Origin: Promethearchaeota archaeon
GTDB lineage: Archaea; Asgardarchaeota; Lokiarchaeia; Sigyniarchaeales; SOKP01
DNA: 34,214 nucleotides
Assembly (NCBI GenBank): GCA_048938025.1
Contig: JBHLMP010000038.1
Location: forward strand, 2,112-36,325
Reading direction: 5' to 3'
Shown here: piece by piece, positions 2,845 to 6,463 of the stretch
How the letters are laid out: each line of letters begins with the position of its first letter
Position numbering within the stretch: position 1 is the stretch's first letter
Notes under the pieces: generated by a model
Database searches by the model: none
What the model saw: the letters and a program-made list of their open reading frames with translations, nothing else
What the model was told of the DNA's origin: nothing
Position numbers and translations under genes: made by a program

Positions 2845-5577
2845 TTAATGGAGATTTTTTAAGTATTTCTTAGTTAAGTAGTCGTCTATTGTCTTAGCTG
2901 CTACTTTTCCTGCACCCATAGCAGATATGACAGTAGCACTTCCAGTAACTATATCCCCCCCCGCAAATACTCCTTCCAAATTTGTTTGCCCATTTTCATC
3001 AGTTTCAATATATCCCCACTTATTCAATTTTAATTCCGGGATAGATTTTGTAAGAATTGGATTTGCTTTTGTGCCAATAGCTATAATAATTGTATCAGTT
3101 TCTATTAAAAATTCTGAGTTTTCAATAGGAATTGGTCGTTTACGCCCTGATTCATCGGGTTCTCCTAATTGCATTTTAATAACCTCCATTTGTTTAACAT
3201 TGTCATTTTCATCCCCTATAAATCTCAATGGGTTTGTTAAGAATTGAAATTCAATACCTTCTTCTACAGCATGATGATATTCTTCCCTTCTAGCAGGCAT
3301 TTCTGCTTCCGATCTTCTATAGACAACAATTACTTTTTCTGCGCCTAACCTTAATGCTGTTCTGGCTGAATCTAAAGTAACATTGCCTCCTCCAATAACA
3401 GTCACAATTTTTCCGATTTTGATAGGTGTATCATATTCAGGAAATTTATAGGCTTTCATTAAATTTGATCTTGTTAAGAATTCATTAGCAGTGAGAACTC
3501 CATTTAAGGTTAACCCAGCTACTTTAAGAAATATTGGAAGTCCCGCCCCAACTCCAATGAAAAAAGCTTTAAATCCAATCTCCTTTAAATCATCAAGAGT
3601 TAGAGTTTTTCCAATAATTGTATTATACTCTATTTTTACATTTAGCATCTTCAATGTCCCAATTTCATTTTCTACAATTTCTTTTGGCAACCTAAACTCT
3701 GGAATTCCGTATGTTAGAACTCCCCCTCCAGCATGGAATGCCTCAAAAATAGTAACATCATAACCCCTCATTGATAATTCTCCAGCACATGCTAATCCTG
3801 CAGGTCCTGAACCTATAACTGCAACTTTCACACCTTTAGGAGCTGCACATTCGGGACATTCTTTTAATTTATTTTTTCTTTCCCAATCAGCAATAAATCT
3901 TTCTAAATAACCAATTGCTATCGGTTCTCCAAGAGAGTTTAATAAACAACTTTTTTCACATTGTATTTCTTGAGGACAAACTCTTCCACAAATGGCAGGT
4001 AATAGATTATCTGTTTTGATTTTATAAAGAGCCTCAATAAATTTATCCTGTTTTAAAAGTTTTATAAATTCAGGAATTTTTATATTAACAGGACACCCTG
4101 AAACACAACTTGGCAATCCACACTGTAAGCATCTTTGAGTTTCTTGTTTAACCAATTCAGTCGTTAATCCTTTTGGCACTTCTTCAAAATTAGTGATTCT
4201 TATTTTTGGATCTTGCTCAATCATTTTCACAGGACGTTGATCAACGTAATTTTTTAATTTAGACTTAGCTATTCTACTCAGTTCTTTGAAACTTTCACTG
4301 TCCTCTTCGATTTCTTTTTTTACAATTTTATTTGAGTCTAATGCCTTTTGAAAGAAATCAGCACCTTGTTTTGTACGTATAATTACTGTTGACCAACCGG
4401 GTTCAGAACCAATGGATCCAACTGAAAGATCTGCATGTATAGCTGTTAAATCATCACAGAAAAAGCAACCAAATCTTCCATATTTGTTTATCCTTTTTAA
4501 TGGAACTTTAAAAATTTCATTTTTTTGATCAGATATAATAAATTTACCCTTATCTATATCCATCTTTTTAACATCAGATGGATTCATTTGGAATTCATTC
4601 CTTAAAATTTCAACAATTTTATCATAATTAAACGATTCCATGCAAAATACGCCAATTTTTATAAAAACATTATCATAAAAAGGCTTATTTAAAGGATAAA
4701 AACTGATTTTCTTAAGAGCTTTCATGATACAAGGTGTACCTACTATCGCTATTTTATTATAGTCTTTAGCATCATGAAAAATTTTCAATACTGGAGTATT
4801 TGTATATTTTGTGCCTGCAGTTTTTAGGAGTTCTTCACCACTTTCAACTAAAACTGGCAATGGCTTTAAGGGTTCATCTCCTATAGTAACAGCAAAAGAA
4901 CCATCAATAAATTCTTGTTCAAATGCAGTTTTAAATAATGTAGTGACTATTCCTCCGTCTTGTCCTACTTTTTTTATACGTGGATATGTTGTCTGAGCTG
5001 TATAAATATTACGATAATAGTTAAATTCTTCTAAGAATTTAACATCATGATCCTGATTTTCTTCAAAATCTTCTAAAACTTTAGGAAAAAATGATCTCGG
5101 ACAAGCTGAATAACATAATCCACATTCAATGCAGGATTCATCATCAATTTCAAATGTTCCTTCAGAATAATCAATTGCATTAACAGGACAAATTGAAACA
5201 CATAAACCACAACCAGAACAAATTTTCCTCTCTTTTATCAGATTTACACTAGGAAAAACACCTTTTTTTTCAGAACTTTCAATTACATCTTGGAAAAATC
5301 TAGGCTTTTCACCTATAAACCCCAATAATCCTAATTCTTTTAGGTATTCTATATTACATAAAATAATTTCCTTAGATAATTGCAGTTCTTTACTTAACCT
5401 CTGAATGTCAATAGTTCCTAATTCTTTAATTTTTTTTAGAATTCCTTGTCTATCCTTTTCTGCTATAGATAATGATTTAATCAGTTGTTCAAAATTGGCT
5501 TCATTATATTTGCCAATTTTTAAAATATTAGCTTTGTTATTAAGTAAAGTTTCAATTAAAGGGGTTTGCACGTCCAT
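2845..5577 (-). CDS. Fusion protein: wHTH + 2x[4Fe-4S] ferredoxin + FrhB/FpoF-like F420-binding domain + NfnB/SudA (GltD-like) large subunit
   Basis: Ferredoxin motifs CSGCGLCVSICP and CIECGLCYSACP. FrhB motifs GQDGGIVT, AGTKY, VGTPC, IGVFCMESF, GCFFCDDLTAIHADLSVGSIG. NfnB motifs RCLQC..CVSGCPV, CGRVCPQEIQCEKSC, GSGPAG, YGIPEFRLPK, GGGNV, YRRS..EMPAR, FAGGDIVTG. The ATG at 5577 lies 1 nt after the upstream TAG, so it is preferred over 5598. Confidence 0.9.
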   Translation of the reverse strand: MDVQTPLIETLLNNKANILKIGKYNEANFEQLIKSLSIAEKDRQGILKKIKELGTIDIQRLSKELQLSKEIILCNIEYLKELGLLGFIGEKPRFFQDVIESSEKKGVFPSVNLIKERKICSGCGLCVSICPVNAIDYSEGTFEIDDESCIECGLCYSACPRSFFPKVLEDFEENQDHDVKFLEEFNYYRNIYTAQTTYPRIKKVGQDGGIVTTLFKTAFEQEFIDGSFAVTIGDEPLKPLPVLVESGEELLKTAGTKYTNTPVLKIFHDAKDYNKIAIVGTPCIMKALKKISFYPLNKPFYDNVFIKIGVFCMESFNYDKIVEILRNEFQMNPSDVKKMDIDKGKFIISDQKNEIFKVPLKRINKYGRFGCFFCDDLTAIHADLSVGSIGSEPGWSTVIIRTKQGADFFQKALDSNKIVKKEIEEDSESFKELSRIAKSKLKNYVDQRPVKMIEQDPKIRITNFEEVPKGLTTELVKQETQRCLQCGLPSCVSGCPVNIKIPEFIKLLKQDKFIEALYKIKTDNLLPAICGRVCPQEIQCEKSCLLNSLGEPIAIGYLERFIADWERKNKLKECPECAAPKGVKVAVIGSGPAGLACAGELSMRGYDVTIFEAFHAGGGVLTYGIPEFRLPKEIVENEIGTLKMLNVKIEYNTIIGKTLTLDDLKEIGFKAFFIGVGAGLPIFLKVAGLTLNGVLTANEFLTRSNLMKAYKFPEYDTPIKIGKIVTVIGGGNVTLDSARTALRLGAEKVIVVYRRSEAEMPARREEYHHAVEEGIEFQFLTNPLRFIGDENDNVKQMEVIKMQLGEPDESGRKRPIPIENSEFLIETDTIIIAIGTKANPILTKSIPELKLNKWGYIETDENGQTNLEGVFAGGDIVTGSATVISAMGAGKVAAKTIDDYLTKKYLKNLH

Positions 5578-5578
5578 T

Positions 5579-6463
5579 CTAAGATGCCTCACTTTCAAAT
5601 TTCTCTAAAGCTCTGCACTCCTCATCATAACATTCTAAAGATTCATTTTCCTGATCTAGAAATCTATTAGCACGCTTTAATAAATTATCAAAATCTACAA
5701 TATGTCCATCTACATCAGGACCATCCACACACGCAAATTGGATATCTCCATCAAGGGTTGAAAAACGACAACCTCCGCACATTCCAGTTCCATCAATCAT
5801 GATAGTATTTAAAGAAACATAAGTTTCTACTTTAGGTAAATCGCCAGATCCGTCAGTAGTAAGAGCAACAAATTTCATCATAATTAGCGGTCCAATCGCA
5901 ATAACAATACTGATTTTTTTCTTTTTTAATATATCCTTAAGTGGATCGGTAACTACCCCTTTCCTTCCTTCGGTTCCATCATCAGTGCAAATAATTAATC
6001 TATCACTAACAGAACGCATCCTTTCTCTCCAAAATAGTAAACTAGTATTTCTTGCACCCATTATTGTTATTATTTCATTTCCTGCCTCCTTTAATTCTTT
6101 TGCTTGCGGATAACAAGGGGCAATTCCAACACCACCACCAATTATCACTACAGGAAAGTCATATTTTTGAATGTGAATTTTGTTTCCTAAAGGTCCAACA
6201 ACATCAAGAATTTTATCTCCTACATTTTGATGCGATAATAATTTAGTACTTTTTCCTACAACCTGAACAACAATAGTTATTGTTCCATTTTCCCTGTTAT
6301 AATCTGCAATTGTCAATGGAAATCGTTCCCCAGTATCATTAACCCGTAATAATAGAAAATTACCAGCATAGGCTTTTTGGGCAATTAAAGGAGCTTTTAT
6401 TACCATTTCGAATAATAAACCACTTGTTCCAAGCTCTATTTTCTCTAGAATTTCATATGGCAT
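5579..6463 (-). CDS. nfnA: NfnA/SudB small subunit (NADH-dependent reduced ferredoxin:NADP+ oxidoreductase / sulfide dehydrogenase beta)
   Basis: ERFPLTIAD (FAD), GPLGN, GGGVGIAP (NAD), TDDGT.GRKG, and the [2Fe-2S] motif MIDGTGMCGGCR...ACVDGP. Confidence 0.88.
   Translation of the reverse strand: MPYEILEKIELGTSGLLFEMVIKAPLIAQKAYAGNFLLLRVNDTGERFPLTIADYNRENGTITIVVQVVGKSTKLLSHQNVGDKILDVVGPLGNKIHIQKYDFPVVIIGGGVGIAPCYPQAKELKEAGNEIITIMGARNTSLLFWRERMRSVSDRLIICTDDGTEGRKGVVTDPLKDILKKKKISIVIAIGPLIMMKFVALTTDGSGDLPKVETYVSLNTIMIDGTGMCGGCRFSTLDGDIQFACVDGPDVDGHIVDFDNLLKRANRFLDQENESLECYDEECRALEKFESEAS

Follow-up and report, generated by a model that had tools for sequence, protein, structure and literature searches.

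An uncultured Loki-type Asgard archaeon carries, on the minus strand of the window (the whole 34,214-nucleotide stretch of DNA that was analysed), a two-gene operon that encodes NfnA and a large subunit in which a ferredoxin domain and an FrhB-type domain are fused to NfnB. The two genes would specify an NfnAB-type (NfnSL-type) flavin-based electron-bifurcating transhydrogenase with an F420-oxidoreductase module placed covalently on its large subunit. We lean toward reading this enzyme as an Nfn with its low-potential exit wired to F420, which probably takes the place of ferredoxin as the third Nfn partner or is used in addition to it. The initial annotation had viewed the locus in the same way and is partly supported: every sequence-level check was favorable, and we infer that the FrhB domain binds F420, that the modules are connected electronically and that NADH, NADPH and F420 are coupled, together with stoichiometry and direction.

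The two genes and all features described below lie on the minus strand. nfnA (5579–6463) encodes a 294-residue small subunit that consists of an FNR-like FAD/NAD(H)-binding domain and an Asp/3-Cys [2Fe-2S] motif. The fusion ORF (2845–5577, stop codon included) encodes 910 residues that comprise the N-terminal, ferredoxin, FrhB and NfnB parts without an internal stop. The earlier description of one uninterrupted ORF of about 910 residues, whose ATG lies 1 nt beyond the end of nfnA, is borne out by direct reading of the sequence: the nfnA stop codon TAG occupies 5581–5579 and is separated by the single base 5578 from the fusion ATG at 5577–5575. A GAGG ribosome-binding site (5587–5590) is located within the 3' end of nfnA, 9 nt 5' of the fusion ATG, an arrangement indicative of translational coupling. 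An alternative in-frame TTG at 5598 would add seven residues upstream; the 33 aligned homologues begin at the ATG-type N-terminus. The fusion is not a misassembly, as both of its junctions are bridged by independent contigs from four of four other runs.

Pfam recovers the anticipated order of ferredoxin, FrhB and complete NfnB, with every domain above its curated cut-off. On the TTG form of the protein, from which 7 is subtracted to obtain the ATG numbering used elsewhere in this text, the matches are a Fer4 dicluster at 121–170, FrhB_FdhB_N at 198–273 (E 8e-20), FrhB_FdhB_C at 281–432 (E 4.9e-42), Fer4_20 at 467–577 (E 1.4e-39) and Pyr_redox_2 at 591–897 (E 1.3e-37). The 2x[4Fe-4S] ferredoxin domain (residues 113–172; 5062–5241), which is also matched by Fer4_7, Fer4_10 and related models, contains two CxxCxxCxxxCP motifs at residues 120–131 and 149–160, and all eight cysteines (120/123/126/130 and 149/152/155/159) are invariant among 33 sequences. 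The FrhB-type flavin/[4Fe-4S] oxidoreductase domain (residues 191–445; 4243–5007) retains Cys 283, 312, 371 and 374 in the same 33 sequences, and this conservation suggests that the four cysteines are cluster ligands. The NfnB N-terminal cluster domain (residues 460–570; 3868–4200) displays CxxCxxxxCxxxCP at 483–496 and CGRVCPQEIQCEKSC at 530–544. Its Cys 483, 486, 491, 495, 534, 540 and 544 and Glu 537 are likewise invariant (n=33); the glutamate belongs to the CPQE motif (534–537) and is presumably a cluster ligand. The FAD- and NADPH-binding domains of NfnB (residues 584–890; 2908–3828) follow with GSGPAG at 589–594, YGIPEFRLPK at 623–632, GGGN at 729–732 and YRRS at 753–756. Thus, the motifs named in the initial annotation were located, and its approximate nucleotide ranges (about 5230–4250 for the ferredoxin and FrhB part and about 4240–2845 for NfnB) agree with the module boundaries of 5241–4243 and 4242–2848. 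The ferredoxin domain is preceded by a conserved domain (residues 1 to ~110; 5248–5577) that is predicted to be all-helical and winged-HTH-like. In an AF2 model of moderate overall quality (pLDDT 78.1, pTM 0.61), this domain reaches a pLDDT of about 90 over residues 11–80, with helices at 6–13, 15–21, 26–53, 58–65 and 69–81. HTH models match it below threshold only (HTH_11, E 0.0046), its score of 0.81 against wHTH clusters in the Atlas serves only as a lead, and it is kept in 33 of 33 aligned fusions.

Both Nfn subunits are complete and close to characterized enzymes. NfnA scores 356.7 bits with NCBIfam NF004862 (cut-off 220) and matches the structures 5jca_S (265 bits) and 4ylf_A (250 bits) with its [2Fe-2S] motif aligned. 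This motif, DGTGMCGGCR (residues 224–233; 5765–5794), conforms to the DGTGMCGxCR definition of the Nfn small subunit given in a review (PMC6405883). The fusion passes TIGR01316, a model of the NfnB/SudA type, at 588 bits (cut-off 471.75). Its NfnB part scores 570 bits with Thermotoga maritima NfnB (4ylf_B) and 520 bits with Pyrococcus furiosus NfnI-L (5jca_L), aligning residue for residue with both at the cluster and NADPH-region motifs, and 483 bits with 5vj7_A, deposited as Xfn. Foldseek comparison of the modeled NfnB part likewise suggests this fold, with TM-scores of 0.87–0.89 on the target at 54–58% identity. As in characterized NfnAB, nfnA is followed within a few bases by nfnB, and the NfnA motif, both NfnB cluster motifs and the FAD and NADPH domains are shared, whereas only the fusion carries a 445-residue N-terminal extension (helical, 2x[4Fe-4S] ferredoxin and FrhB) on NfnB. 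In the same review (PMC6405883), such an extension is absent from all four Nfn architecture patterns (A–D), and the words F420 and FrhB have zero occurrences in the text.

What is the likely partner of the fused module? At E <= 1e-10 the FrhB part matches 13 distinct PDB sequences, and every one of them is a protein that reacts with F420, namely FrhB, FdhB, Fsr, an Fsr-like 613-residue chain (9tn7_A), CODH zeta and FwdI; scores include 176 bits for FrhB (6qgr_B), 176 bits for 8riu_B and 151 bits for Fsr (7npa_A). The module scores 253 bits with NF006807 (F420-reducing hydrogenase beta subunit), just below the cut-off of 269, and falls below the equivalog frhB model (223 vs 331.5 bits) and far below the NCBIfam FpoF models (162–168 bits vs cut-offs of 444–475). 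Two additional ferredoxin-type [4Fe-4S] centers N-terminal to FrhB place it in the Fsr-N subtype, since the Fsr-N/FpoF architecture is described as two ferredoxin clusters followed by FrhB (PMC3448663); the FrhB, FpoF and Fsr-N family is termed FDRC elsewhere (PMC8498797). FrhB homology extends to about residue 443 and is followed from residue 448 by homology to NfnB, and the module is thus tethered directly to the NfnB N-terminal cluster domain, near whose distal cluster ferredoxin is predicted to bind (PMC6405883, PMC5861303).

The closest precedent is provided by CODH zeta and FwdI of Ca. Ethanoperedens thermophilum (8RIU, 8RJA), which share a two-cluster ferredoxin domain and an FrhB-like FAD/[4Fe-4S] F420 reductase with the fusion (residues 113–443, E 1.2e-50). 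According to the structures and assays described for this organism, the module attaches to the distal cluster of CODH or Fwd through its N-terminal ferredoxin domain and turns these normally ferredoxin-linked enzymes to F420 reduction (PMC11493965). The Ethanoperedens module is a separate subunit on CO dehydrogenase or formylmethanofuran dehydrogenase and has been assayed, whereas the fusion is known from sequence, forms one chain with NfnB and has the extra N-terminal domain. Fsr of Methanococcales (7NP8, 7NPA) is similar in being one polypeptide with an N-terminal ferredoxin and FrhB half (fusion residues 112–429, E 2.6e-43) and a C-terminal catalytic half; its F420H2-oxidase half is reported to feed an iron-sulfur relay into the catalytic half (PMC10229431). 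However, the catalytic half of Fsr is a siroheme sulfite reductase and that of the fusion a bifurcating-type flavoprotein. The Fsr-N architecture is also described as a modular point of F420 entry or exit (PMC3448663), but FpoF/Fsr-N-type modules are free-standing components of membrane complexes or of putative glutamate synthases and sulfite reductases. NfnB-like modules have been recombined with other redox modules in HdrA of ANME-1 and in NfnABC/StnABC (9N5U, 9BOV, 8OH5; PMC9012536), although the partners there are HdrA or NuoF/Fdh-like rather than FrhB and identity to the NfnB part is 37–41%. The combination of nfnA with a ferredoxin/FrhB-NfnB fusion, for which the initial annotation knew of no characterized counterpart, was not found in the searched literature or the PDB.

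We propose that a hydride from NADPH would reach the bifurcating FAD of the NfnB part, from which one electron would travel through NfnA's [2Fe-2S] cluster and FAD to NAD+. The second electron would enter the proximal and then the distal [4Fe-4S] cluster of NfnB. The fused 2x[4Fe-4S] ferredoxin domain would accept it from the distal cluster in place of the free ferredoxin of canonical Nfn and hand it on to the FrhB domain's [4Fe-4S] cluster and FAD; this FAD would gather two electrons and reduce F420. The overall equation, possibly reversible, would read 2 NADPH + NAD+ + F420 <-> 2 NADP+ + NADH + F420H2.

The host genome appears able to make and use F420. It contains, as the initial annotation had suggested checking, F420 biosynthesis genes above cut-off (cofG, 372.7 bits; cofH, 463.6 bits; cofE, 261.9 bits) and a CofD-family gene, in addition to two genes for F420-dependent Mtd (360 and 352 bits); F420 production in Asgard archaea is itself described as predicted (PMC8498797). 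No FrhA hydrogenase scores above cut-off in this genome (best 143 vs 392.5 bits), and an npdG-like gene is full-length but sub-threshold (77 bits vs a cut-off of 149.8). The genome encodes a second, paralogous nfnA-fusion operon, which is preceded by an MtdA/B-type (Mpt_N) gene here and at 5 of the 12 foreign loci with long upstream flanks, linking this operon to C1/H4MPT metabolism. The F420-wired enzyme would likely connect the NAD(P)H pools with those steps of the H4MPT Wood-Ljungdahl branch that depend on F420H2, in a host that lacks an F420-reducing hydrogenase.

The fusion is a conserved architecture. Full-length copies occur in 53 genomes, all from one Lokiarchaeial family; the fusion was found in none of 265 genomes from other Asgard families. 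For 90 of the 120 database clusters listed, the match spans 94% or more of the query with 58–90% identity, and the 33-sequence alignment has a mean column identity of 72%, which places the architecture far beyond chance. nfnA lies directly upstream at both loci of the host and at all 24 foreign loci examined. Unfused NfnBs that are 72–82% identical nest within the fused clade, a careful tree has four changes between the fused and unfused states, of which the starred branches force at least three, and the AU test rejects a single fused clade (p 0.000345). The F420-type module was thus gained or lost at least three times, and the nesting of the unfused forms indicates that it is dispensable for the NfnB core.

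These unfused relatives are presumably ferredoxin-dependent, and the core of the fusion probably retains ferredoxin chemistry. It is possible but not likely that free ferredoxin is still used at or near the fused ferredoxin domain and that FrhB adds a ferredoxin:F420 oxidoreductase branch, such that reduced ferredoxin, F420H2, NADH and NADPH are interconverted by one enzyme and F420 supplements ferredoxin. Consistent with such an exchange among four pools, stand-alone Fsr-N/FpoF-type modules are described as F420 entries for the iron-sulfur chains of several enzymes (PMC3448663), soluble FqoF is discussed as a ferredoxin:F420 oxidoreductase (PMC10667645), and the 2-oxoacid oxidoreductases of the host genome point to ample production of reduced ferredoxin. 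However, the ferredoxin domain of the module fills the ferredoxin docking site in the solved Ethanoperedens precedent (PMC11493965). In addition, the host genome has no unfused close NfnB for purely ferredoxin-linked work, its next best NfnB-like match being 44% identical.

Does the FrhB-type domain react with F420 at all? PF04432 also matches the control genomes of Synechococcus elongatus and Bacteroides thetaiotaomicron, organisms that are not known to use F420 as a redox coenzyme, and F420 binding therefore cannot be read from sequence. The domain could instead hold FAD and a cluster without reacting with F420 and act as a relay or as the entry site of another acceptor or donor, which could be a small redox substrate or a protein recruited by the winged-helix-like domain, whose ~110 conserved residues lack an explained role. 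Many FrhB paralogues are reported to cluster with enzymes that are not expected to use F420 (PMC9012536). Moreover, a cofH match at E <= 1e-60 is absent from 7 of 57 fusion-bearing genomes with completeness of 69–99%, one of which is 99% complete. Nevertheless, we regard an F420-independent relay as rather unlikely: the nearest characterized relatives by sequence are all F420-reactive, the NF006807 score is close to its cut-off, F420 biosynthesis and Mtd genes are present in the host, and cofH is found in the other 50 of the 57 genomes.

The energetics of an F420 outlet are puzzling. The E0' of F420 is quoted as -340 mV (PMC11493965) and the potential of the Nfn proximal cluster as -718 mV (PMC6405883), so the low-potential branch would dissipate several hundred mV. 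F420 and NAD(P)H have almost the same potential, which leaves the energetic rationale weak, and a plain Fno-type enzyme would suffice for F420/NAD(P)H exchange. With three nearly isopotential couples and no obvious gain from bifurcation, the complex might be a plain F420H2:NAD(P)+ oxidoreductase in which bifurcation at the NfnB flavin has been lost and NfnA provides no more than a further NAD(H) site or structural support. P. furiosus NfnII is described as having NAD+-independent ferredoxin:NADP+ activity (PMC6405883), and Nfn-like enzymes thus need not all bifurcate. However, the loss of bifurcation is improbable, given that the CPQE glutamate, the Asp ligand of NfnA and the cluster motifs are strictly conserved, that nfnA is kept at every locus examined and that the NfnB part is nearer to T. 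maritima NfnB and P. furiosus NfnI than to Xfn.

Most databases name such proteins as GltD: homologues of the fusion are annotated at source as 'glutamate synthase (NADPH/NADH) small chain' or 'NADPH-dependent glutamate synthase', and putative F420-dependent glutamate synthases derived from Fsr-N homologues have been proposed (PMC3448663), but there is hardly any chance that the fusion is a glutamate synthase small subunit (GltD) serving a GltB-type partner with F420H2 as the reductant, like the proposed FGltS: both GltD models fail (TIGR01317, 266.4 vs 447.7 bits; TIGR01318, 360.6 vs 482.95 bits) where TIGR01316 passes, GltD structures score 272–274 bits against 570 for NfnB, the GltB model PF01645 yields three partial matches, none convincing and none above 24.3 bits, in a genome that is 96.7% complete, and the conserved neighbor is nfnA, all of which agrees with the original assignment to NfnB.

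Elsewhere in the same host genome, an FrhB::PyrK-like fusion is located directly behind 2-oxoacid:ferredoxin oxidoreductase genes, which suggests that this host habitually wires ferredoxin-type enzymes to FrhB modules.

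The operon lies on the minus strand of the window, which has a G+C content of ~29%. The nfnA ORF (5579-6463, 294 aa) ends with a TAG stop codon at 5581-5579, and a direct reading of the sequence confirms the one-base spacing and the single uninterrupted ORF described by the initial annotation: the ATG of the fusion lies at 5577, follows a GAGG located 9 nt upstream, and opens a 910-aa frame that runs unbroken to 2845. All of the sequence motifs quoted in that annotation were found in place, and the Pfam families Fer4 dicluster, FrhB_FdhB_N, FrhB_FdhB_C, Fer4_20 and Pyr_redox_2 all score above their cut-offs in the long ORF. 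The FrhB homology stops about five residues short of the start of the NfnB homology. What is the N-terminal region of ~110 residues, on which the initial annotation is silent? This region has no family match at threshold, is conserved, and is predicted to be a five-helix bundle in the AF2 model (pLDDT about 90). Its feature-space neighbours are winged-helix proteins (score 0.81), and a winged-helix-like nature is only a lead.

Judged from sequence, the best-supported reading of the operon is an Nfn whose low-potential branch would be wired to F420 via the fused ferredoxin and FrhB domains; we infer each step from architecture to function. Fusion residues 113-443 match the FrhB of M. barkeri (176 bits) and the CODH zeta subunit and FwdI of Ca. 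Ethanoperedens (176 bits each) among PDB entries, with the FrhB of M. marburgensis and Fsr as further solved matches. The cluster ligands of the FrhB domain are putative assignments made by conservation. The zeta and FwdI modules provide a precedent, because crystal structures locate their N-terminal ferredoxin domain at the distal cluster of CODH and Fwd, and both enzymes reduce F420 in assays once the module is bound (PMC11493965). In Nfn, ferredoxin is predicted to dock by the distal cluster, in the N-terminal cluster domain of NfnB (PMC6405883, PMC5861303), and PMC3448663 defines the 'Fsr-N' architecture and lists its modular uses. For Fsr itself, the passages of PMC10229431 examined describe neither density for F420 nor the residues that bind it. 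A complex prediction for the FrhB module (113-445) and the NfnB module (446-910), which was run without controls, gave a score of 0.01 (mark 0.32) and thus speaks neither for nor against contact between the two.

The main objection to F420 wiring is energetic. Most of the energy in the bifurcated low-potential electron would be dissipated on transfer to F420 (about -340 mV), and for F420/NADP exchange a plain Fno would suffice. However, the Ethanoperedens enzymes tolerate a similar loss as a thermodynamic pull (PMC11493965), and the objection is thus not disqualifying. A further doubt comes from cofH, which has no match in 7 of the 57 fusion-bearing genomes. Since cofH is general to the family of the window (50/57 fusion-bearing versus 66/78 other genomes), a correlation between the fusion and F420 biosynthesis is not informative. 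Moreover, membership of the FrhB family does not by itself imply F420 use, given that PF04432 also occurs in Synechococcus elongatus and Bacteroides thetaiotaomicron, neither of which is known to use F420 as a redox coenzyme. For Asgard archaea, F420 production is so far a prediction rather than a chemical observation (PMC8498797).

An alternative identity for the large subunit, a GltD that works with a GltB partner, fares worse. Fusion residues 448-904 match T. maritima NfnB with 570 bits, P. furiosus NfnI-L with 520 bits and 5vj7_A (deposited as 'Oxidoreductase' under the title Xfn) with 483 bits in the PDB, whereas GltD reaches only 272-274 bits, far under the NfnB-type matches. A Foldseek search with the AF2 model ranks the relatives in the same order. 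The alignment with characterised NfnBs shows no differences in the two cluster motifs or in the YRR(S/T)xxEMPAR stretch. The large subunit is thus of the NfnB type, and a GltB partner was not seen: PF01645 yields three partial matches of at most 24.3 bits in the host genome. The small subunit matches those of P. furiosus NfnI (265 bits) and T. maritima Nfn (250 bits), with its Asp/Cys motif aligned in both.

The host genome (3.52 Mb, 88 contigs, 96.7% complete) contains cofG, cofH and cofE above their cut-offs together with a CofD-family gene, and thereby bears out the F420-biosynthesis genes that the initial annotation had suggested looking for. It also harbours two genes for F420-dependent Mtd. 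Scores below cut-off were obtained for its Mer-like genes (155 and 146 bits), for an npdG-like gene (77 bits) and, with the FrhA model, for the large subunits of its [NiFe] hydrogenases (143 and 122 bits), and neither Fno nor an F420-reducing hydrogenase scores above cut-off in this genome. A second operon on contig C87 (L001:4631-9395) comprises an Mpt_N/Rossmann gene of the MtdA/B type, nfnA and, after a one-base gap, a 928-aa FrhB-NfnB fusion. Identity between the two fusion paralogues falls from 78% over the NfnB part to 61% over the FrhB part and 45% over the N-terminal domain, and no further close NfnB or NfnA was found in the host genome beyond the two operons. The Mpt_N gene resembles NAD(P)-linked methylene-H4MPT dehydrogenase, and of the 12 foreign loci whose long upstream flanks were examined, 5 likewise have an Mpt_N neighbour. 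The C87 operon has CDC48 downstream and, upstream, a divergent gene for an HdrA-MvhD fusion that carries DUF7347 at its N-terminus; a [NiFe] hydrogenase gene is nearby. Four other genomes retain the whole cluster, with identities of about 89-98%.

Related modules are found elsewhere in the same genome. On contig C15 (L003:4094-8614), one base separates the alpha, beta and gamma genes of a 2-oxoacid:ferredoxin oxidoreductase from a downstream gene whose 605-aa product joins an FrhB domain to a PyrK/NfnA-like FAD/NAD and [2Fe-2S] domain, and this oxidoreductase is another ferredoxin-type enzyme with a possible link to F420 or NAD(H). Contig C85 (L002:1524-3014) encodes a free-standing 496-aa protein that shares 41% identity with the fused module and has two ferredoxin clusters and FrhB preceded by a long N-terminal extension; a 459-aa polyferredoxin-like gene is nearby. 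A third gene, truncated by the end of contig C29 (10419-11051), opens with the fusion-type N-terminal domain (HMM E 5e-12) and enters the ferredoxin domain; it may continue in one of the FrhB fragments at the ends of C11 or C30.

Misassembly of the fusion is excluded because full-length relatives are common and contigs of other sequencing runs bridge both of its junctions. Among the 120 clusters listed at 90% identity, 90 have lengths of 855-935 aa, are 58-90% identical to the query and cover 94% or more of it. Named sources in the list are MAGs of Lokiarchaeota or Promethearchaeota, except for a 635-aa fragment labelled Hermodarchaeota. The FrhB/NfnB junction (~nt 4243) and the nfnA/fusion junction (~nt 5578) are each bridged in 4/4 other public runs from three studies. 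Two of these runs come from the same study as the possible source sample, and the other two, which are independent, show 33-73 letter differences across the bridging pieces. Among the 20 holders of the locus listed (13 studies), none is on record as RNA.

The fusion appears to be confined to the family of the window. A HMMER search of 1.84 billion representatives at 50% identity returned one full-length relative only (P0034, 72% identity, 1498 bits), followed by a match of 641 bits to the NfnB half alone; one 420-aa representative matches only residues 1-420. The taxonomic range, which the initial annotation had left to be mapped, was addressed in 400 genomes of the phylum by scoring the two best candidates per genome, with 150 of 722 matches listed. 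Matches at E <= 1e-30 occur in 388 of the 400 genomes and are nearly all NfnB-only. Among the matches listed, the full-length fusion accounts for 58 matches in 53 genomes, plus four contig-end fragments, all in the window's own family, where it occurs in 57/135 genomes and 7/13 genera, together with one 862-aa shortened form; on the same basis of two candidates per genome, it is found in 0/265 genomes of the other 32 families. The best 80 loci of a pattern search with the NfnB half are ordinary bacterial and archaeal NfnBs and do not bear on how widely the fusion occurs.

Two apparent variants were rejected. An Acetothermia MAG locus (L049) that seemed to match residues 118-905, as a fusion or split form, actually contains an HdrA-like gene with a C-terminal ferredoxin domain, then nfnA, then an unfused nfnB. 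A split form with an FrhB gene just upstream, hinted at by stop codons in NfnB-only matches, was likewise dismissed, and the unfused loci with an NfnB match that were inspected are plain nfnA-nfnB in 8/8 cases.

How did the module spread within the family? A maximum-likelihood tree was built from 56 NfnB domains (40 fused, 8 unfused Asgard and 8 outgroup), with the fused and unfused groups set by architecture ahead of tree building. Four unfused NfnBs are nested within the fused clade. The tree needs four state changes, at least three of which are forced by the starred branches, and a single change suffices in 0/200 bootstrap trees. Monophyly of the fused sequences is rejected by the AU test (lnL difference 129.6, p 0.000345); the long branches in the tree are an unfused Asgard sequence (G092) and the outgroup sequences of Methanothrix, Thermotoga and C. 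difficile. The fused modules have their junction and N-terminal domain in common, which makes a single gain with several later losses the simplest reading. Gene conversion between fused and unfused copies is a possible alternative history. Whichever history holds, the NfnB core can do without the module.

Nfn is the simplest model for flavin-based electron bifurcation, and to our knowledge ferredoxin alone has so far been its low-potential partner. In Asgard archaea, an F420-dependent H4MPT Wood-Ljungdahl branch is predicted. The fusion bears on Asgard physiology, given a host genome that lacks an F420-reducing hydrogenase or Fno above cut-off. A natural Nfn with a hard-wired F420 reductase would, if true, widen Nfn chemistry and offer a well-defined case of a low-potential electron being delivered to a carrier that obligately takes two electrons. 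We tentatively propose, at less than even odds, that the enzyme is the first flavin-based bifurcating or confurcating enzyme to join NADPH, NADH and F420H2 in one complex; that it is the organism's sole Nfn, present as two paralogues; that it provides the missing F420H2 supply or drain route for the H4MPT Wood-Ljungdahl branch in Asgard archaea without F420-reducing hydrogenase; and that the F420 module is a plug-in, repeatedly lost or gained, that toggles the low-potential partner of Nfn between ferredoxin and F420.

The initial annotation knew of no characterised enzyme with this architecture, and indeed no PDB chain covers both halves. The literature searched holds no description of an FrhB-NfnB fusion, and Asgard supplementary tables or subscription papers may mention the gene. 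A review of Nfn (PMC6405883) gives four architectures, with F420 and FrhB absent from its text, and a review of F420 (PMC8498797) never mentions Nfn or transhydrogenase and confines the FrhB-type 'FDRC' family to Euryarchaeota. Databases currently name the fusion protein glutamate synthase, so that both nitrogen assimilation and redox balancing may be wrongly assigned in metabolic models of Lokiarchaeia.

Several relatives depart from the standard arrangement. One genome carries two full-length fusion genes in tandem (G175:C211:65351-70849), the first with two in-frame stops in its match, and three genomes of one genus (G145, G146 and G149, genus g2) each have one TAG inside the full-length match, with an open frame of 918 aa reported; recoding, a sequencing error or an artefact at the alignment edge may account for it. 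In a relative with unfused nfnAB, a 920-aa ORF (L101:2355-5117) adjoins nfnA upstream and contains an NfnB-like region with 35% identity over residues 136-583. The 821-aa representative P0164 is a chimera unlike the fusion, in which the flavoprotein module sits inside FrhB: FrhB_N is followed by Fer4_20 and Pyr_redox_2 (NfnB-like, 40% identity) and then by FrhB_C.
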